From NCBI RefSeq assembly GCF_003334815.1, contig NZ_QOWO01000012.1: a stretch of 64,000 nucleotides of DNA. One strand, written 5' to 3'. Position numbers and translations under genes: made by a program. Of this stretch, positions 3,219 through 18,708 are shown piece by piece (positions within the stretch are counted from its first letter, which is position 1; every line of letters begins with the position of its first letter). Source of the DNA: Escherichia coli (lineage in GTDB: Bacteria > Pseudomonadota > Gammaproteobacteria > Enterobacterales > Enterobacteriaceae). The notes beneath the pieces were generated by a model. That model ran no database searches and was not told the DNA's origin. It was given only the letters and a program-made list of their open reading frames with translations.

Positions 3219-3394
3219 TTCCATCACCTGTCGGCATATTTTTAAGGGCTGATGCGTAATTCCTCAATGGAGCATCAGTGTTGATGGAAACGAAGATAGA
3301 CATTCATTTAATCAATAAAAGTGATCAAAACCACACCAATTGAAACGCTGTTTTATTTTTATCGGATCATTGTTTTTATTTTGAAATTGATCAC

Positions 3395-10185: not shown

Positions 10186-10190
10186 ACACT

Positions 10191-10414
10191 GCCGGATGCG
10201 GCGCGAGCGCCTTATCCGGCCTACGGGTCGGCAACAGTTGTAGGCCTGATAAGACGCGACAGCGTCGCATCAGGCATTGATTGCCGGATGCGGCACAAGT
10301 GCCTTATCCGGCCTACAGGTCGGCAATAGTTGTAGGCCTGATAAGACGCGACAGCGTCGCATCAGGCATTGATTGCCGGATGCGGCGCGAGCGCCTTATC
10401 CGGCCTACGGGTCG
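10191..10414. repeat. Tandem BIME: about 2.4 copies of a 92-bp unit of paired inverted REPs
   Basis: gccggatgcggc...cttatccggcctac...gtaggcctgataagacgcgacagcgtcgcatcaggca recurs with period 92 (unit starts 10191, 10283, 10375). Confidence 0.9.
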
Positions 10415-10451
10415 TGCATCCGACAACACCGAATTTACAGGAACACAGAAC

Positions 10452-11276
10452 ATGCAAAACATTACTCAGTCCTGGTTTGTCCAGGGAATGATCAAAGCCA
10501 CCACCGACGCCTGGCTGAAAGGCTGGGATGAGCGCAACGGCGGCAACCTGACGCTACGCCTGGATGACGCCGATATCGCACCATATCACGACAATTTCCA
10601 CCAACAACCGCGCTATATCCCGCTCAGCCAGCCCATGCCTTTACTGGCAAATACACCGTTTATTGTCACCGGCTCGGGCAAATTCTTCCGTAACGTCCAG
10701 CTTGATCCTGCGGCTAACTTAGGCATCGTAAAAGTCGACAGCGACGGCGCGGGCTACCACATTCTTTGGGGGTTAACCAACGAAGCCGTCCCCACTTCCG
10801 AACTTCCGGCTCACTTCCTTTCCCACTGCGAGCGCATTAAAGCCACCAACGGCAAAGATCGGGTGATCATGCACTGCCACGCCACCAACCTGATCGCCCT
10901 CACCTATGTACTTGAAAACGACACCGCGGTCTTCACTCGCCAACTGTGGGAAGGCAGCACCGAGTGTCTGGTGGTATTCCCGGATGGCGTTGGCATTTTG
11001 CCGTGGATGGTGCCCGGCACGGACGAAATCGGCCAGGCGACCGCACAAGAGATGCAAAAACATTCGCTGGTGTTGTGGCCCTTCCACGGCGTCTTCGGCA
11101 GCGGACCGACGCTGGATGAAACCTTCGGTTTAATCGACACCGCAGAAAAATCAGCACAAGTATTAGTGAAGGTTTATTCGATGGGCGGCATGAAACAGAC
11201 CATCAGCCGTGAAGAGTTGATAGCGCTCGGCAAGCGTTTCGGCGTTACGCCACTCGCCAGTGCGCTGGCGCTGTAA
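10452..11276 (+). CDS. rhaD: Rhamnulose-1-phosphate aldolase RhaD
   Basis: ORF 10281..11276 runs through the REP array; true start is the ATG at 10452 ([25 protein letters not shown]...), 274 aa, class II aldolase. Confidence 0.93.
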
Positions 11277-11285
11277 GGAGCAAAC

Positions 11286-11600
11286 ATGATCCGCAAAGCC
11301 TTTGTCATGCAGGTAAACCCCGACGCCCACGAAGAGTATCAGCGTCGGCATAATCCCATCTGGCCAGAACTGGAAGCAGTGCTGAAATCTCACGGTGCGC
11401 ATAACTACGCCATCTATCTCGACAAAGCGCGTAATCTGCTGTTTGCCATGGTAGAGATTGAATCTGAAGAACGCTGGAATGCGGTTGCCAGCACTGATGT
11501 TTGCCAACGTTGGTGGAAATATATGACCGATGTTATGCCCGCTAACCCGGATAACAGCCCGGTGAGTAGCGAGCTGCAAGAAGTGTTTTACCTGCCGTAA
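11286..11600 (+). CDS. rhaM: L-rhamnose mutarotase RhaM
   Basis: 104-aa [33 protein letters not shown]... recognised as RhaM (YiiL). Confidence 0.93.
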
Positions 11601-11900
11601 TTGCCCAATGTGCCAGAGATGCCTCCGGCACAATATTTTAAATTTCGATTTGAAAAATTAAACATATTACATCTCCCGGTAAGTTATATTTCCCTGATAC
11701 ATTGTGAGTAAATCACAAAAATAATGAATAACCCATTAATGATTCATGTGGTTTATTTAAATAACCATTATGTGCATTACTCCGCAAATCTGACCTTTCA
11801 CTCTGTCTCAAATTGTCATTGTTTACCGACATATCGCCTCTCATCACTTAATCGCTCCACCATTACAATTGATTAAAATATATTTTATGGAGTCCGATTA

Positions 11901-12347
11901 ATGGCAGCTCTTACTGCAAGCTGTATTGACCTGAATATTCAGGGCAATGGCGCTTATTCCGTTCTGAAGCAGTTGGCGACAATAGCGTTACAAAACGGTT
12001 TTATCACCGACTCACACCAGTTCCTGCAAACCCTGCTGCTGCGCGAAAAAATGCACTCTACTGGATTTGGTTCCGGTGTCGCCGTGCCGCACGGTAAAAG
12101 CGCCTGCGTTAAACAACCGTTCGTATTATTCGCCCGCAAAGCGCAGGCTATTGACTGGAAAGCCAGCGATGGCGAAGACGTCAATTGCTGGATCTGCCTC
12201 GGCGTGCCGCAAAGCGGCGAAGAGGATCAGGTCAAAATCATCGGCACACTGTGTCGCAAAATTATTCACAAGGAATTTATTCATCAACTGCAACAGGGCG
12301 ATACCGACCAGGTGCTTGCCTTGTTAAATCAAACCCTCAGCTCATAA
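11901..12347 (+). CDS. frvA: PTS fructose-like EIIA component FrvA
   Basis: 148-aa ORF with the PTS EIIA(Fru/Mtl)-type histidine motif (GSGVAVPHGK); recognised as FrvA. Confidence 0.85.
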   Translation: MAALTASCIDLNIQGNGAYSVLKQLATIALQNGFITDSHQFLQTLLLREKMHSTGFGSGVAVPHGKSACVKQPFVLFARKAQAIDWKASDGEDVNCWICLGVPQSGEEDQVKIIGTLCRKIIHKEFIHQLQQGDTDQVLALLNQTLSS

Positions 12348-12357
12348 GGAAGTGGCG

Positions 12358-13809
12358 ATGGAGTCATCCTTACGTATTGTCGCGATCACCAACTGCCCCG
12401 CCGGGATCGCTCACACCTACATGGTGGCGGAAGCCCTGGAACAGAAAGCCCGTTCTCTCGGTCATACCATAAAAGTGGAAACTCAAGGGTCCAGTGGCGT
12501 TGAAAACCGCTTATCCAGCGAAGAGATTGCCGCTGCCGATTACGTCATTCTCGCTACCGGGCGTGGCCTGAGCGGTGATGATCGCGCGCGGTTTGCCGGG
12601 AAGAAAGTTTATGAGATTGCCATCTCCCAGGCGTTGAAAAATATCGACCAGATTTTCAGCGAATTACCGACAAACTCGCAGCTTTTTGCCGCAGATAGCG
12701 GCGTGAAGCTTGGCAAACAGGAAGTGCAAAGCGGTAGCGTGATGAGCCACCTGATGGCGGGCGTCTCTGCGGCGCTGCCGTTTGTCATCGGCGGTGGTAT
12801 CCTGGTGGCGCTTGCCAACATGCTGGTGCAGTTCGGTTTGCCGTATACCGATATGTCGAAAGGCGCGCCGTCGTTTACCTGGGTAGTTGAATCCATCGGT
12901 TACCTTGGCTTCACCTTTATGATCCCCATCATGGGCGCTTATATTGCCTCGTCGATTGCCGATAAACCGGCTTTCGCTCCGGCGTTTCTGGTTTGCTATC
13001 TGGCGAACGACAAAGCGCTGCTCGGCACCCAGTCGGGTGCGGGATTCCTCGGCGCGGTGGTGCTGGGGCTGGCGATTGGCTATTTCGTCTTCTGGTTCCG
13101 CAAAGTGCGCCTTGGCAAAGCATTACAACCGCTGCTCGGTTCAATGCTGATCCCGTTCGTTACTCTGCTGGTTTTCGGCGTGCTCACTTACTACGTTATC
13201 GGGCCGGTGATGTCCGACCTCATGGGCGGGCTGCTCCACTTCCTGAATACCATTCCTCCATCAATGAAGTTTGCGGCAGCGTTTCTGGTCGGTGCGATGC
13301 TGGCGTTCGATATGGGCGGCCCCATCAATAAAACCGCCTGGTTCTTCTGCTTCTCACTGCTGGAAAAACACATTTATGACTGGTACGCCATCGTCGGCGT
13401 TGTCGCGCTGATGCCGCCCGTCGCGGCGGGTCTTGCGACGTTCATTGCGCCCAAACTGTTTACCCGACAGGAAAAAGAGGCTGCCAGTAGTGCCATTGTG
13501 GTCGGTGCCACAGTCGCAACCGAACCGGCTATTCCTTACGCTCTGGCAGCTCCGTTGCCGATGATTACCGCCAATACGCTGGCGGGCGGCATTACCGGCG
13601 TGCTGGTGATCGCTTTCGGAATCAAACGTCTGGCACCTGGTTTGGGTATCTTTGACCCGCTGATCGGCCTGATGTCGCCGGTGGGTTCGTTTTATCTGGT
13701 GCTGGCGATTGGCCTCGCGCTGAACATTTCATTCATTATCGTCCTGAAAGGATTGTGGTTACGCCGCAAAGCGAAAGCCGCGCAACAGGAGCTTGTCCAT
13801 GAACATTGA
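12358..13809 (+). CDS. frvB: PTS fructose-like EIIBC component FrvB
   Basis: ORF 12352..13809; ATG at 12358 with AAGGAAG SD; N-terminal EIIB cysteine motif (ITNCPAGIAHTYM) plus polytopic EIIC domain. Confidence 0.85.
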   Translation: MESSLRIVAITNCPAGIAHTYMVAEALEQKARSLGHTIKVETQGSSGVENRLSSEEIAAADYVILATGRGLSGDDRARFAGKKVYEIAISQALKNIDQIFSELPTNSQLFAADSGVKLGKQEVQSGSVMSHLMAGVSAALPFVIGGGILVALANMLVQFGLPYTDMSKGAPSFTWVVESIGYLGFTFMIPIMGAYIASSIADKPAFAPAFLVCYLANDKALLGTQSGAGFLGAVVLGLAIGYFVFWFRKVRLGKALQPLLGSMLIPFVTLLVFGVLTYYVIGPVMSDLMGGLLHFLNTIPPSMKFAAAFLVGAMLAFDMGGPINKTAWFFCFSLLEKHIYDWYAIVGVVALMPPVAAGLATFIAPKLFTRQEKEAASSAIVVGATVATEPAIPYALAAPLPMITANTLAGGITGVLVIAFGIKRLAPGLGIFDPLIGLMSPVGSFYLVLAIGLALNISFIIVLKGLWLRRKAKAAQQELVHEH

Positions 13810-14869
13810 GTTACTGCAACAGTTGTGCGAAGCCAGCGCCGTCAGCGGCGATGAACAGGAAGTTCGCGACATTCTGATAAACACGCTGGAACCTTGCGTG
13901 AATGAAATCACCTTCGATGGTCTGGGCAGCTTTGTTGCCCGTAAGGGGAATAAAGGTCCAAAAGTTGCCGTTGTCGGACATATGGATGAAGTCGGCTTTA
14001 TGGTCACCCACATCGACGAGAGCGGTTTTCTGCGTTTTACCACCATTGGCGGCTGGTGGAATCAGTCGATGCTCAACCACCGGGTAACCATACGCACACA
14101 CAAGGGAGTGAAAATCCCTGGTGTGATTGGTTCCGTCGCGCCTCATGCGTTAACGGAAAAGCAAAAGCAACAACCGCTGTCATTTGATGAGATGTTCATT
14201 GATATTGGCGCGAACAGTCGCGAAGAGGTGGAAAAGCGCGGCGTGGAAATTGGTAATTTTATTAGCCCGGAAGCCAATTTTGCCTGCTGGGGCGAAGATA
14301 AAGTGGTCGGCAAGGCGTTGGATAACCACATCGGCTGCGCAATGATGGCTGAACTATTGCAGACGGTGAATAATCCCGAAATTACGCTGTATGGCGTTGG
14401 CAGTGTGGAAGAAGAAGTTGGGCTACGCGGGGCGCAAACCTCGGCGGAACACATTAAACCGGACGTCGTGATCGTGTTGGATACCGCCGTAGCGGGCGAT
14501 GTTCCGGGCATTGATAACATTAAATACCCGCTGAAACTGGGCCAGGGGCCGGGGCTGATGCTGTTTGACAAGCGCTACTTCCCCAACCAGAAACTGGTAG
14601 CAGCGTTAAAAAGCTGTGCCGCACATAACGATTTACCGCTGCAATTTTCCACCATGAAAACCGGTGCGACGGATGGCGGGCGCTACAACGTGATGGGCGG
14701 CGGGCGTCCGGTTGTCGCGCTGTGTCTGCCAACTCGTTATCTGCACGCCAACAGCGGTATGATTTCAAAAGCCGATTACGAAGCTCTGCTCACGCTGATA
14801 CGGGGTTTTCTGACGACCTTAACTGCGGAGAAAGTCAACGCGTTTAGCCAGTTCCGTCAGGTGGATTAA
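13799..14869 (+). CDS. frvX: M42-family peptidase-like protein FrvX
   Basis: ORF 13793..14869; ATG at 13799 with CAGGAG SD, overlapping the frvB stop by 11 nt; 356 aa recognised as FrvX. Confidence 0.85.
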   Translation: MNIELLQQLCEASAVSGDEQEVRDILINTLEPCVNEITFDGLGSFVARKGNKGPKVAVVGHMDEVGFMVTHIDESGFLRFTTIGGWWNQSMLNHRVTIRTHKGVKIPGVIGSVAPHALTEKQKQQPLSFDEMFIDIGANSREEVEKRGVEIGNFISPEANFACWGEDKVVGKALDNHIGCAMMAELLQTVNNPEITLYGVGSVEEEVGLRGAQTSAEHIKPDVVIVLDTAVAGDVPGIDNIKYPLKLGQGPGLMLFDKRYFPNQKLVAALKSCAAHNDLPLQFSTMKTGATDGGRYNVMGGGRPVVALCLPTRYLHANSGMISKADYEALLTLIRGFLTTLTAEKVNAFSQFRQVD

Positions 14870-16617
14870 TGCTAAACGAACGCCAGTTAAAGATTGTCGA
14901 TCTGCTGGAGCAACAGCCGCGCACGCCTGGCGAGCTGGCGCAACAGACTGGCGTTTCAGGCAGGACCATCCTGCGTGATATTGACTATCTCAACTTCACC
15001 CTTAACGGCAAAGCCCGCATTTTCGCCAGTGGCAGTGCGGGCTATCAGCTGGAAATCTTCGAGCGCCGCAGCTTTTTTCAGTTGCTGCAAAAGCACGATA
15101 ACGACGATCGGCTGCTGGCGCTGTTATTACTGAATACTTTCACTCCCCGTGCGCAACTCGCCTCGGCGCTTAATTTGCCAGAAACGTGGGTAGCAGAGCG
15201 TCTGCCCCGGTTAAAACAGCGTTATGAACGCACTTGTTGCCTGGCCAGCCGCCCTGGTTTGGGCCATTTCATTGATGAGACAGAAGAGAAACGCGTTATC
15301 TTGCTGGCGAACTTGCTGCGCAAAGATCCGTTTTTAATTCCGCTGGCGGGCATAACACGAGACAACCTTCAGCATTTATCCACGGCCTGCGACAACCAAC
15401 ACCGCTGGCCGCTCATGCAGGGTGATTATCTCTCCAGCCTGATTCTGGCGATTTACGCCCTGCGTAATCAACTGACCGATGAGTGGCCGCAATATCCCGG
15501 TGACGAGATAAAACAAATCGTTGAACATAGCGGTCTGTTTCTTGGTGATAACGCTGTAAGAACCCTGACGGGTTTGATAGAGAAACAGCATCAGCAAGCG
15601 CAGGTAATTTCAGCCGATAATGTGCAGGGGTTGCTGCAAAGGGTGCCGGGCATCGCGTCATTGAATATTATTGATGCGCAGCTGGTTGAGAATATTACCG
15701 GGCATTTATTACGTTGCCTTGCCGCACCAGTGTGGATTGCTGAGCACCGCCAGAGCAGCATGAATAACCTGAAAGCCGCCTGGCCTGCGGCCTTTGATAT
15801 GAGTCTGCACTTTATTACGCTACTGCGTGAACAGCTCGATATTCCCCTTTTCGACAGCGATCTGATCGGTTTGTATTTTGCCTGTGCGCTGGAGCGGCAT
15901 CAAAACGAACGCCAGCCGATCATTTTGCTCTCGGACCAGAACGCGATTGCCACTATTAATCAGCTCGCCATTGAGCGCGATGTTTTAAATTGTCGGGTAA
16001 TTATTGCCCGTAGCTTAAGCGAACTTGTTGCCATTCGCGAAGAGATTGAGCCGTTATTGATCATTAACAACAGCCATTATTTACTGGATGACGCGGTAAA
16101 TAATTACATCACCGTAAAAAATATCATTACGGCTGCCGGTATCGAACAAATAAAACATTTTCTGGCGACGGCATTTATTCGCCAACAGCCGGAGCGTTTT
16201 TTCTCTGCCCCCGGAAGTTTTCATTATTCGAATGTACGCGGTGAAAGCTGGCAACATATTACCCGGCAAATTTGTGCGCAATTAGTCGCACAACACCATA
16301 TTACCGCCGATGAAGCACAACGCATCATCGCCCGCGAAGGCGAAGGTGAAAACCTGATTGTTAATCGCCTCGCCATCCCACATTGCTGGAGCGAACAGGA
16401 GCGACGTTTTCGTGGATTTTTTATTACCCTCGCCCAACCAGTTGAGGTGAATAACGAAGTCATTAACCATGTCTTGATCGCCTGCGCCGCCGCCGATGCG
16501 CGTCATGAGCTAAAAATATTTAGCTATCTGGCAAGCATATTGTGTCAGCATCCGGCGGAGATTATTGCCGGGTTAACAGGATATGAGGCATTTATGGAGT
16601 TACTTCACAAGGGGTGA
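14869..16617 (+). CDS. frvR: Putative frv operon transcriptional regulator FrvR
   Basis: 582-aa ORF whose ATG shares one base with the frvX stop (TAATG); N-terminal HTH-like region (PGELAQQTGVSGRTILRDIDYL). Confidence 0.8.
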   Translation: MLNERQLKIVDLLEQQPRTPGELAQQTGVSGRTILRDIDYLNFTLNGKARIFASGSAGYQLEIFERRSFFQLLQKHDNDDRLLALLLLNTFTPRAQLASALNLPETWVAERLPRLKQRYERTCCLASRPGLGHFIDETEEKRVILLANLLRKDPFLIPLAGITRDNLQHLSTACDNQHRWPLMQGDYLSSLILAIYALRNQLTDEWPQYPGDEIKQIVEHSGLFLGDNAVRTLTGLIEKQHQQAQVISADNVQGLLQRVPGIASLNIIDAQLVENITGHLLRCLAAPVWIAEHRQSSMNNLKAAWPAAFDMSLHFITLLREQLDIPLFDSDLIGLYFACALERHQNERQPIILLSDQNAIATINQLAIERDVLNCRVIIARSLSELVAIREEIEPLLIINNSHYLLDDAVNNYITVKNIITAAGIEQIKHFLATAFIRQQPERFFSAPGSFHYSNVRGESWQHITRQICAQLVAQHHITADEAQRIIAREGEGENLIVNRLAIPHCWSEQERRFRGFFITLAQPVEVNNEVINHVLIACAAADARHELKIFSYLASILCQHPAEIIAGLTGYEAFMELLHKG

Positions 16618-16620
16618 ACT

Positions 16621-16645
16621 GTGTCGGATGCGCCGCATCCGACAC
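16621..16645. terminator. Perfect palindrome at the frvR / yiiG convergent junction, likely bidirectional terminator
   Basis: gtgtcggatgcg-c-cgcatccgacac (12-bp arms) lies 4 nt after the frvR stop and about 20 nt after the yiiG stop; flanking U-tracts are weak. Confidence 0.55.
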
Positions 16646-16666
16646 TGCATTTATCATCAAAAACGT

Positions 16667-17722
16667 TTAACGCAGGCTATTATAGTCATCAACCATTTCG
16701 TTGTACTCGCGTAATGCTCTCGGGAAAGAGTCTTCGACCATCCAGCTTGAGTTTGCGTCCTGAAGTTGCTCTTTATCCCAGTCAGAGTACGGGACTTTAT
16801 CTCTGATGCGGCGAACGTATTTTTTAGCCTCGAGTTGATACTGGCCTGCCGAATTAATAAACGAGAAATTCATGCCGCCTTTATCCGCTTCTTTGGCCTG
16901 CGCCACTAGCGTTTCCAGTTCAGACACTTTCTTCATTGCCGCTTCTGCATCAAACTTATCTTGCGATATCAGGTTATTAATTTGTTTCGCTGAAATCATG
17001 ACTGCCAGAGAGTAGTAGTGGAATGTTTTCCCTTCTCTTTCTTCAATATTTTTCAGTTCCGCAAGCTGACGCTTATCATTAATTTCCTGAATCGCCGCAT
17101 GATAAGATTCGGCTACAGGTTCAAAGGCTTCCAGATTTTTTAAGAATGTCTGGTGCAGCGTTTTCCCTTTCGCAAACGCATCGTCTTTATAATTTTCCTG
17201 GGTGTAATATTTATCCATTTCGTTAATGGTATTACCCAACGCCACGGCAGCATCGATATAACTCACCGCCACGCCATCAATTGGTTGCAGCGCAGGCGTT
17301 AACGCCACAGCACTTTTTACGCCTTTTTCACACTCAGCGAGGTTGGATTCACTAATGCCGTAGATGCCATAAACAGTACGCTCTTCACCGGTAGGCCCCT
17401 GTTTAAAATCTTTCAGCCAGTCAGCATAACGCGCCAGACTGCGCTGTACCGGGATCTGTAACTTGTTGTAGCACTTGATATAGACATCCATTTTTTCGTC
17501 GAAAACCGCTTGTTCATCGACCACCGGTTGCGCAGGTGTTTCAGGTTTAGCTTCTGCTTTTGCAACGGGAGCTTCAGTAGGTTTCGCTTCAGGAGCTGGT
17601 GCGGCAGGTTGACTATTGGCAGGCGGGAGCGTTTCTGTTTCGGCTTTTTTATCATCACAACCCGTCAGACCGAGGGACATGATGGCGACTATAATAGCGG
17701 AAGATAATAAATTCCTTTTCAT
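16667..17722 (-). CDS. yiiG: Lipoprotein YiiG (DUF3829-type)
   Basis: 351-aa ORF with signal peptide and lipobox (MSLGLTGC), low-complexity Ala/Pro/Glu-rich linker; recognised as YiiG. Confidence 0.8.
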   Translation of the reverse strand: MKRNLLSSAIIVAIMSLGLTGCDDKKAETETLPPANSQPAAPAPEAKPTEAPVAKAEAKPETPAQPVVDEQAVFDEKMDVYIKCYNKLQIPVQRSLARYADWLKDFKQGPTGEERTVYGIYGISESNLAECEKGVKSAVALTPALQPIDGVAVSYIDAAVALGNTINEMDKYYTQENYKDDAFAKGKTLHQTFLKNLEAFEPVAESYHAAIQEINDKRQLAELKNIEEREGKTFHYYSLAVMISAKQINNLISQDKFDAEAAMKKVSELETLVAQAKEADKGGMNFSFINSAGQYQLEAKKYVRRIRDKVPYSDWDKEQLQDANSSWMVEDSFPRALREYNEMVDDYNSLR

Positions 17723-17874: not shown

Positions 17875-18708
17875 TTAATTGCTCAAACGCTGCGGATGGG
17901 TATAAACCGTTGCCCGACCCGGTTTACAAAAACCTACCAGTGTCAGATTACAGCGCTCAGCCACTTCTACAGCAAGCGTGGTCGCGGCAGACACCGCAAA
18001 CAAAATCTCTACGCCGCACATCGCCGACTTTTGCACCATTTCATAACTGGCACGACTGGAAACCAGTACCGCACCTTGCTGCCAGCTTTCCCCTTCTTGT
18101 GACCGGCGGCCTAACAGTTTGTCCAGCGCCACATGGCGACCCACGTCTTCATGCCCGCCGACCAGTTCGCCAGATGGCAACATCCAGGCAGCGGCGTGAG
18201 TACAACCAGTCAGTTGCCCCACTGGCTGAAAATCGTTGAGATGACGTAATGCATCATCCAGTTTGTTGAGATCAAACGTCTGGGTGAACGGTAGCGGCTG
18301 CACCGGTTTTCCGATGTCATTAAGTTGCTCCACGCCGCATACGCCACAGCCCGTACGTCCCGCCAGCGCCCGGCGGCGCTCCTTCAACCCCATAAAGCGG
18401 CGGCTGGAAAGCTCAATTTGTACTTCAAGACCATTACAGGAAGGAACGACATCCATGCCGAAGATATCGCGCGGACTTTCGATAATCCCCTCGGAAAGCG
18501 AAAAACCGAGCGCAAAGTACTCAAGGTCTTTGGGCGACGCCATCATCACCACATGCGAAATGCCGTTGTAGACCAGCGCAACGGGAACTTCTTCCGCGAC
18601 CTCATCTAACCGTGGGTGTTGTAAATCATCACGCCGCCATAACTCAATTTGATGAACACCTGTGATATTTGTCACATTTTCGATTTCTTTTCGCTGTGTT
18701 TTTTTCAC
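17875..18708 (-). CDS. fdhD: Formate dehydrogenase sulfurtransferase FdhD
   Basis: 277-aa [21 protein letters not shown]... recognised as FdhD; the start codon appears to be GTG. Confidence 0.92.

Follow-up and report, generated by a model that had tools for sequence, protein, structure and literature searches.

The frvABXR operon of Escherichia coli: a known and conserved phosphotransferase system locus with a predicted FrvR-dependent promoter

The window analyzed in this study, 64,000 nucleotides (nt) of one strand from Escherichia coli (RefSeq assembly GCF_003334815.1, contig NZ_QOWO01000012.1), carries at positions 11901-16617 the genes frvA, frvB, frvX and frvR, an operon long annotated in E. 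coli (b3900-b3897 in K-12). The frvABXR operon is real, correctly placed and already known, and it does not represent a new kind of system. What is new here is its conservation across species, a conserved operator and promoter, a map of the domains and residues of FrvR, the history of the leader and the enzymes with which the operon is partnered in other genomes. The four open reading frames lie on one strand downstream of rhaBADM, their starts are identical in the RefSeq and MG1655 annotations, and all four Frv proteins match their own NCBIfam equivalogs with scores far above the cut-offs. The genes are as follows.

11901..12347, plus strand: frvA, fructose/mannitol-type enzyme IIA (EIIA) of the phosphotransferase system (PTS), 148 amino acids (aa), with His64 in the VPHG motif
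12358..13809, plus strand: frvB, fructose-family PTS enzyme IIBC (EIIBC), 483 aa from the ATG, with Cys13 in the NCPAG motif
13799..14869, plus strand: frvX, M42 dinuclear metallo-aminopeptidase, 356 aa, identified by PF05343 and ligand alignment
14869..16617, plus strand: frvR, Mga/MtlR-class regulator, 582 aa, identified by domain mapping

An initial annotation, made from the sequence alone, had proposed these gene types (a fructose-type EIIA and EIIBC, an M42 peptidase and a large regulator), and the profile matches bear them out. The tight packing that it described is also as found, with frvB and frvX overlapping by 11 nt and frvX and frvR by 1 nt. The gap between frvA and frvB needs correction from 5 nt to 10 nt (ATG at 12358) or 4 nt (GTG at 12352). 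The annotated ATG at 12358 is preceded by a good Shine-Dalgarno sequence (AAGGAAG, 12346-12352), and a frvA-frvB gap of 10-13 nt together with the frvB/frvX overlap is seen again in other genera. FrvA scores 146.6 bits against TIGR00848 (cut-off 103.5) and 289.9 bits against NF007389 (cut-off 151), and its candidate phosphorylation site, from the motif, is His64 in GVAVPHGK. For FrvB the scores are 1034 bits against NF008493, 102.8 bits against TIGR00829 (cut-off 76.85) and 196 bits against TIGR01427 (cut-off 157.55), with Cys13 in ITNCPAGIAHT as the predicted EIIB active-site cysteine. By these profiles and motifs, FrvA and FrvB are predicted to form a fructose-family PTS permease.

FrvX matches PF05343 at 2.4e-101 (residues 43-333 against model positions 1-292 of 292), and its solved relatives are B. 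subtilis YsdC (1VHE), 5DS0 and P. horikoshii TET2 (PhTET2, 1Y0R). In PhTET2 the metal ligands are H68, D182, E213, D235 and H323 and the catalytic residue is Glu212; in the alignment with 1Y0R, the counterparts in FrvX (ligands H61, D175, E206, D228 and H316 and catalytic E205) are all present. PMC3511314, a source for the M42 ligand list, shows M42 "cellulases" to be aminopeptidases. With the metal ligands of FrvX complete, the label "cellulase-like" in the initial annotation should be dropped, and FrvX is, as judged from the alignment, an M42 metallo-aminopeptidase with a complete active site.

In FrvR, Pfam recognizes only an N-terminal HTH_11 (8e-10) and a C-terminal PTS_EIIA_2 domain, and a sequence search against the PDB returned no match at E <= 1. 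A fold comparison matched FrvR to 5WAY, 3SQN, 4R6I and 9ATX, and its AlphaFold model, built on a homologue alignment, reached a pLDDT of 92.3 and a pTM of 0.84. The family is small, with 195 representatives among 1.84 billion proteins; across 58 aligned homologues Pfam detects PRD in 18, Mga in 17 and PTS_IIB in 7, and one distant homologue (P0109) has the full HTH-Mga-PRD-PRD-EIIB-EIIA layout. The domains of FrvR were mapped approximately as follows.

Residues 1-63: helix-turn-helix (HTH) domain
Residues 66-135: second, winged HTH (wHTH) domain
Residues 139-246: PRD1-like domain
Residues 249-344: PRD2, with H279
Residues 349-440: EIIB-like domain, no Cys
Residues 451-582: EIIA domain, with H505

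Domain analysis of FrvR, a check suggested in the initial annotation, thus comes out positive, with PRD-like regions as well as a C-terminal EIIA domain. The first of the conserved PRD2 histidines is H279, which is invariant in 58 of 58 homologues; the position of the second is Tyr336 in FrvR, with Tyr in 44 and His in 12 of the 58. The alpha/beta domain at 349-440 aligns with the PTS_IIB match of P0109, with Leu or Ser at the position of the Cys (IILLSDQ), and H505, the histidine of the EIIA domain, is conserved. Accordingly, FrvR is best seen as a reduced Mga/MtlR-class protein in which two histidines, H279 and H505, are plausible sites of phosphorylation. A BLASTP comparison of FrvA with the EIIA domain of FrvR gave no alignment; thus the EIIA of the regulator is not a recent copy of FrvA. 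Table 1 of PMC4797297 places FrvR among characterised factors of the AraC family, an assignment that we rejected, as FrvR has no AraC/HTH_18 match and its C-terminus is an EIIA domain.

A genome scan with relatives of FrvR (a 6-sequence alignment) returned 34 loci. They come from Escherichia, Citrobacter, Kluyvera, Klebsiella spallanzanii, Salmonella diarizonae and arizonae, Trabulsiella, Enterobacter, Huaxiibacter, Buttiauxella and Atlantibacter, and from nine Listeria sensu lato species. The order frvA-frvB-frvX-frvR is kept in nearly all of them (25 Enterobacteriaceae loci and eight of nine Listeria loci), the exceptions being L028 and L039, with truncated or missing matches, and L035 (Listeria), with only a fragment of frvX. 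Between E. coli and Listeria, identity is 77-78% for FrvB, 60-65% for FrvX, 36-39% for FrvA and 32-35% for FrvR. The similarity of FrvB across phyla suggests horizontal transfer of the operon, without which it would be hard to explain, and the lower values suggest that FrvA and FrvR diverge fast, as would be expected of proteins that need contact with host components. In comparisons with O157, Citrobacter, Salmonella, Trabulsiella and Buttiauxella, the pairwise ratio of nonsynonymous to synonymous substitution rates (dN/dS) is 0.01-0.17 for all four genes, similar to that of neighbouring rhaM, indicating that the frv genes are under selection and not decaying. Among 5426 complete E. coli genomes, 4185 (77%) carry the operon, and ST131 has been reported to lack it. 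In E. coli TW14425 (L002, 6115-6812) an IS1 element located 59 nt after rhaM replaces frvABXR and the 3' part of yiiG, which represents an independent, insertion sequence-mediated loss of the operon.

The leader of frvA contains the following elements.

11771..11786, plus strand: CRP-like site TGTGCATTACTCCGCA, TGTG-N8-CGCA (cross-genus consensus TGTG-N8-CACA)
11814..11831, plus strand: inverted repeat TGTCATTGTTTACCGACA, TGTCA-N8-CGACA, predicted FrvR operator, centre at about -53.5
11841..11846, plus strand: weak -35-like hexamer TCATCA (3/6), inside a conserved enterobacterial GCTCAT(C) block, 17 nt before the -10
11864..11869, plus strand: -10 hexamer TACAAT (5/6), a TAnnnT at a fixed distance from the repeat
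11889..11892, plus strand: Shine-Dalgarno sequence GGAG, 8 nt before the frvA ATG and invariant in all aligned leaders

The initial annotation saw no obvious sigma-70 -35/-10 pair here, which is right at consensus stringency, as a scan of the leader requiring at least 4/6 matches per hexamer and at least 9/12 in total found no match. It does not mean that a promoter is absent, as conserved promoter elements appear when species are compared. The inverted repeat has a single match in the 64-kb window, at the leader, where 0.31 would be expected by chance. In 664 kb of related loci it has 35 matches, 33 of which lie 83-124 nt upstream of frvA, those of all nine Listeria loci included, and it is also present in the distant FrvR-family loci L041, L043 and L044. 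A TAnnnT hexamer follows the repeat at exactly 32 nt in 39 of 39 loci (37 by regular expression, two by eye), a spacing that holds even where FrvR identity is only 24-40%. The repeat ends 9 nt upstream of the weak -35. In the nine Listeria leaders it takes the form TGTCA-N9-TGACA and the -10 hexamer is TATAAT or TATACT; in seven of the nine a site resembling a catabolite-responsive element (cre), AGTAAGCGTTATCA or a close variant, lies between operator and -10 and replaces the CRP-like site. When the 220 nt upstream of frvA were aligned from 25 enterobacterial loci, the TGTG and C-CA of the CRP-like site proved invariant or nearly so, and the leader of L044 has a near-perfect TGTGA-N6-TCGCA. 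The site in the window (TGTGC-N6-CCGCA) keeps 7 of 10 core positions and is centred at about -97.5 from the predicted start. A perfect palindrome at 11702-11718 (TTGTGA-N5-TCACAA) was considered as a CRP site and rejected; its N5 spacing is wrong, and it belongs to the K-12-specific part of the leader and is matched neither in O157 nor in other genera.

From this layout, transcription would start near 11876, which would place the repeat at about -62 to -45. We assign the repeat to FrvR as its putative operator since the regulator gene provides the sole DNA-binding function that travels with the repeat. The poor adjacent -35, the rigid distance to the -10 and the precedents of the class suggest that FrvR acts as an activator at this promoter, and the leader appears to have the layout of an activator-dependent promoter rather than to be promoterless. 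FrvR could instead be a repressor, which would occupy the inverted repeat and obstruct RNA polymerase or CRP as long as no substrate is transported. Repressors typically have palindromic operators close to promoters, the repeat sits between the CRP-like site and the -35, and the operon shows little or no expression in the laboratory. We nevertheless consider repression by FrvR rather improbable, since a repeat 9 nt from a poor, conserved -35 and at an exact 32 nt from the -10 at 39 loci fits a contact with RNA polymerase, and since the structural relatives Mga, AtxA and AcpB and the MtlR/LicR class are, as is well established, all activators.

The leader also carries a record of its own history. 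In O157:H7, a gene of 1395 nt for a 464-aa RafY-family glycoporin (Pfam Porin_8 (RafY) at 5e-152; NCBIfam has no model for it) separates rhaM from frvA. It runs divergently to frvA, with an intergenic region of 477 base pairs (bp), and the O157 region aligns with the window only over 11713-12000, at 81% identity. Relative to the window, O157-type strains have the porin gene and about 290 nt of additional intergenic DNA. The upstream segment that remains is:

11602..11712, no strand assigned: K-12-type (porin-less) leader segment, with no counterpart in the O157-type locus L004

On this alignment, the K-12 leader is best described as a deletion derivative whose upstream half is lineage-specific sequence left after loss of the porin gene. 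The K-12-type leader (assessed by the stretch 11620-11770) is found in 2831 of 5426 complete E. coli genomes and the porin gene in 2544. By subtraction, about 1350 genomes have both the porin and frv, and about 1190, mostly B2-like strains, have the porin and have lost frvABXR and part of yiiG. The divergent porin-frvA arrangement is also present in Escherichia sp., Trabulsiella and Enterobacter, and in Citrobacter and Kluyvera an XRE-cupin/AzlC module sits between porin and frvA. We observed such an XRE-cupin regulator gene with an azlC-like gene upstream of frvA in Citrobacter, Kluyvera, Salmonella diarizonae and Huaxiibacter (L007, 5224-6533, and at the same place in L008-L017 and L024), where the pair parts frvA from the porin or from rhaM. 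Near the start of the O157 porin gene no second copy of the operator was found, even with two mismatches allowed; thus co-regulation of the porin by FrvR is unsupported.

The composition of the leader, which the initial annotation took as a sign of silencing in the laboratory, raises the possibility that frv is a foreign-looking operon which H-NS holds off through AT-rich DNA and which normally has no functional promoter of its own. The 300-bp leader (11601-11900) is AT-rich as initially described, with a GC content of 0.333, where the operon has 0.525 and the window 0.506. The leader value falls within the lowest 1.1% of all 300-nt windows, a level to which about eight other stretches of the window come similarly close; the value is 0.306 over 11601-11770, and half of the leader's low GC falls in the lineage-specific segment. 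Low-GC leaders are confined to Escherichia, Trabulsiella, Enterobacter kpr-6 and low-GC Listeria, and the O157 porin-frvA intergenic region is at 0.348. Silencing would also be in line with the lack of a match in the consensus promoter scan, with the variable presence of frv in E. coli (77%, and absent from ST131/B2) and with the appearance of frvA among genes with altered RNA polymerase occupancy, alongside many horizontally acquired genes. We still hold silencing by H-NS as the whole explanation to be unlikely. The promoter/operator architecture is conserved across two phyla, the leaders of Citrobacter, Salmonella and Buttiauxella are not AT-rich (GC 0.47-0.49), the genes are under strong purifying selection, and the searched literature held no H-NS binding data for the locus. 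FrvA protein has been quantified in the LB medium proteome of K-12 MG1655 (PMC9508795), so that any silencing must at least be incomplete, and in the wild type the occupancy of frvA by RNA polymerase is measurable. The two ideas are not mutually exclusive, as an H-NS layer could lie on top of control by FrvR. H-NS may add such a layer of repression, and absence of the inducer is the simpler reason for crypticity.

Decay is the other reading that the leader invites, in which the system is a relic in this lineage with nothing functional remaining in K-12. The window lacks the porin gene and about 290 nt of the intergenic DNA seen in O157-type strains, and whole-operon loss has occurred elsewhere, in B2 and through IS1 in TW14425. 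In addition, the window has one substitution that alters an invariant residue of FrvX near the metal-bridging aspartate:

14328, plus strand: G-to-A substitution, FrvX R177H (CGC codon in MG1655)

Residue 177 is two positions after metal-bridging Asp175 (D-[DN]-R motif). An Arg occupies this position in all 37 orthologues, in the paralogues YpdE and SgcX and in four aligned PDB relatives; the window has His. The A allele at 14328 is found in 0 of 5426 complete E. coli genomes. R177H is private to the window, is not a feature of K-12 and is a poor basis for biology. The variants at 18653 (fdhD) and 9768 (rhaA) are likewise private or nearly so, being found in 0 and 1 of about 5400 genomes, respectively. 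Overall, the window differs from MG1655 by about 15 isolated substitutions outside a repetitive extragenic palindromic (REP) array upstream of rhaD, and 10460-11640 is 100% identical to K-12 strains. It looks like K-12 sequence with private substitutions, which may reflect a mutated line, sequencing errors or introduced changes. That the system is a relic appears very unlikely, given that none of the four frames is disrupted and that the core of the promoter (11771-11900) is still there, and that the porin-less type is the majority (2831 genomes) and is still under purifying selection. The differences from MG1655 include those at 3336, 4600, 6445, 7610, 9768, 18653, 26583, 31132, 36693, 44279, 44771, 53618, 60432 and 61357. 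The REP array (REP/BIME, 10190-10418, between rhaA and rhaD) has a copy number unlike that of MG1655, and the alignment breaks there with a 77-nt offset.

The initial annotation gave the substrate as unknown, in agreement with the searched literature (frv names, H-NS, and M42 plus PTS topics), in which we found no functional study of the frv genes. Many literature matches to "FrvA" refer to an unrelated P-type ATPase of Listeria, and an E. coli pangenome paper (PMC9205054) accounts for frvA by way of this unrelated Listeria FrvA iron-efflux ATPase. Clues to the substrate come from the enzymes encoded in related operons. Those of Listeria (L030-L038) have an extra gene between frvX and frvR (about 8770-9996 in L030) for a PatB-family C-S lyase (TIGR04350, 358-362 bits, cut-off 340). 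In other Firmicute relatives the gene content is as follows.

L041: EIIA-EIIBC-R-aminotransferase fold-M20
L043: EIIA-EIIBC-aminotransferase fold-R
L044: EIIA-EIIBC-M42-R
L046: SBP_bac_5 (peptide-binding), then EIIA-EIIBC-aminotransferase fold-R-M20

Across these Firmicute relatives an M20 hydrolase and a PatB-type C-S lyase/aminotransferase either take the place of M42 or accompany it. In staphylococci, the M20 enzyme PepV followed by PatB forms a two-step route for a Cys-Gly S-conjugate (PMC11742315). Together with the M42 paralogues embedded in the fry and sgc operons of E. coli, the M42/M20 and PatB partners and the staphylococcal route make an amino acid or short peptide attached to a sugar, be it through an amide, an S-linkage or another bond, the most likely cargo.

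An ordinary, redundant fructose PTS, with FrvX as a housekeeping aminopeptidase that lies in the operon incidentally, would require no such cargo. FrvA and FrvB do exceed the cut-offs of the fructose subfamily domain models, and the characterised M42 enzymes are broad aminopeptidases. FrvB reaches 271 bits against the FruA equivalog NF007984, below its cut-off of 793, and a similar 256 bits against the mannosylglycerate permease (MngA). FrvB is thus no closer to FruA than to MngA and forms a branch of its own in a family whose range extends beyond fructose, so that "fructose-type" is the name of a family and not of a substrate. Furthermore, the peptidase/amidohydrolase is co-inherited across phyla in overlapping frames and is swapped for the same-clan M20 in relatives, and PatB-type genes are embedded in the Firmicute versions. 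We therefore give the fructose explanation very little weight.

The reading that we favour, at a probability of roughly one in two, is that frvABXR is an intact, selection-maintained and inducible PTS uptake and catabolic unit that looks cryptic under laboratory growth chiefly for lack of its inducer, with FrvR as its activator and an amino-acid-linked sugar as its substrate. FrvR would bind the TGTCA-N8-CGACA repeat at 11814-11831 and compensate for the poor -35 (TCATCA), assisted in enterobacteria by cAMP-CRP at 11771-11786. Its activity would be governed by PTS phosphorylation. HPr~P would act on H279, the sole histidine retained in PRD2, as an activating, catabolite-linked signal, and H505, in the EIIA-like domain, would receive an inhibitory signal from the Frv EIIA/EIIB when no substrate is transported. 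The substrate would be a hexose joined to an amino acid or a short peptide; FrvB would import it and phosphorylate the sugar, and FrvX would then cleave the aminoacyl or peptide amide bond in the cytoplasm. Where it is retained, the RafY-type porin may pass the bulky compound across the outer membrane.

Several observations weigh against this favoured model. With regard to the promoter, the CRP-like site of E. coli has a weak core (TGTGC/CCGCA) and is centred at about -97.5, away from the textbook positions of CRP, and a repeat ending at -45 would also suit a repressor. With regard to the regulator, Pfam detects no PRD in FrvR itself, and a phosphorylation logic derived from MtlR may not apply to a protein with no Pfam PRD, with Tyr336 and with an EIIB-like domain that has no Cys. 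The enzyme set is not uniform, with enterobacterial operons having no PatB and one Firmicute locus having no peptidase, and no glycosidase, deglycase or kinase is present to indicate the fate of the sugar. The link between porin and frv is loose, as the two are apart in Citrobacter and Kluyvera and the porin is kept in B2 strains that have no frv. Finally, the transcription start, the binding of FrvR and of CRP, and the phosphorylation events are all read from sequence.

A broader proposal, spanning Enterobacterales and Firmicutes, is offered tentatively. An FrvR-type regulator, a fructose-family EIIA/EIIBC and an MH-clan amidohydrolase (M42/M20), often with PatB, could constitute one cross-phylum pathway for an amino-acid- or peptide-linked sugar, possibly a cysteine S-conjugate, with a common operator geometry of TGTCA-N8/9-TGACA placed 32 nt before the -10. 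In this pathway the E. coli FrvR would be a Mga/MtlR-class activator under the control of PTS phosphorylation that works with sigma-70 and CRP in a Gram-negative host.

The operon is flanked by two predicted RNA structures.

11609..11655, plus strand: two hairpins directly after the rhaM stop codon (11609-11632 GC-rich; 11636-11655 AU-rich)
16621..16645, no strand assigned: perfect 11-12-bp palindromic hairpin GTGTCGGATGCG.CGCATCCGACAC between convergent frvR and yiiG

The upstream structure has a fold of -15.2 kcal/mol (z = -3.2) and a U-rich tail, and a strict terminator scan did not list it. It probably ends the rhaBADM transcript and would insulate frv from read-through. The downstream hairpin, at -22.4 kcal/mol (z = -4.3), was equalled in stability by 0 of 200 shuffles and has no T-run on either strand. 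Position 16645, at which the initial annotation had ended the locus, is the 3' end of this hairpin after the frvR stop codon, and the hairpin probably marks or stabilises the 3' end. A search of 11300-17000 with Rfam at a permissive E-value gave two sub-threshold chance matches only and revealed neither a riboswitch nor a leader RNA.

Like several other PTS systems of E. coli K-12, frv has stood in the annotation for decades with no substrate assigned, and the M42 peptidases encoded within frv, fry and sgc form a recurring pattern that lacks an explanation. The candidates are now specific: the operator at 11814-11831, the -10 at 11864-11869, and H279 and H505 of FrvR. The comparison set, with Listeria carrying the PatB lyase and O157-type E. 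coli carrying the RafY-type porin, narrows the substrate to amino-acid-linked sugars. If the model is true, an orphan PTS would gain a function and a Firmicute-style, PTS-controlled activator would be operating in enterobacteria.

Among known systems, the Firmicute activators of the MtlR/LicR/ManR type are the comparison for the regulator. They have in common with FrvR the predicted domain order HTH, Mga-like wHTH, PRD1, PRD2, EIIB(Gat)-like and EIIA(Mtl/Fru)-like, a gene inside the PTS operon that is presumably controlled, conserved histidines in PRD2 (first position) and in EIIA, and a binding site (predicted in the case of frv) just upstream of a weak -35. FrvR differs in being shorter (582 aa), in having PRDs beyond the reach of Pfam, a Tyr in place of the second PRD2 His and a Cys-less EIIB-like domain, and in belonging to a small separate family in a Gram-negative host, where a CRP-like site takes the place of cre. 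The proteins matched by fold, Mga, AtxA, AcpB and MgaSpn (5WAY, 3SQN, 4R6I and 9ATX), are 13-14% identical to FrvR, have no C-terminal EIIA domain and control virulence genes and not a cognate PTS. For the porin of O157-type strains the comparison is the RafY glycoporin of the plasmid raf operon, to which it is about 79% identical in protein and about 86% in DNA; it is chromosomal, divergent from frv and outside any raf operon, and is absent from the window.

The combination of a PTS with a peptidase had been called atypical for a simple sugar PTS in the initial annotation. The peptidase is real and a conserved member of the unit, yet the pairing recurs in E. coli itself, where fry (fryBC-ypdF-ypdE-fryA) and sgc (sgcXBCQAER) are, like frv, cryptic PTS operons that embed an M42 paralogue (YpdE, 34%, and SgcX, 29% identical to FrvX). 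Neither has an FrvR-type regulator: fry has an AraC-type neighbour, YpdC, and an additional M24 peptidase, and sgc has the DeoR-type SgcR and a galactitol-type PTS. The staphylococcal PepV/PatB route is a pair of metallopeptidase followed by PatB, which Firmicute frv-type operons encode beside a PTS; there the genes are unclustered and uptake is via a peptide transporter, and E. coli frv has no PatB gene. The working model for frv shares its logic with the MngA/MngB system for 2-O-alpha-mannosyl-D-glycerate, in which a conjugate is imported, phosphorylated and split inside the cell. The splitting enzyme MngB is a glycosidase, whereas in frv that place would be taken by a metallo-aminopeptidase, implying that the bond to be split is an amide and not a glycosidic one.

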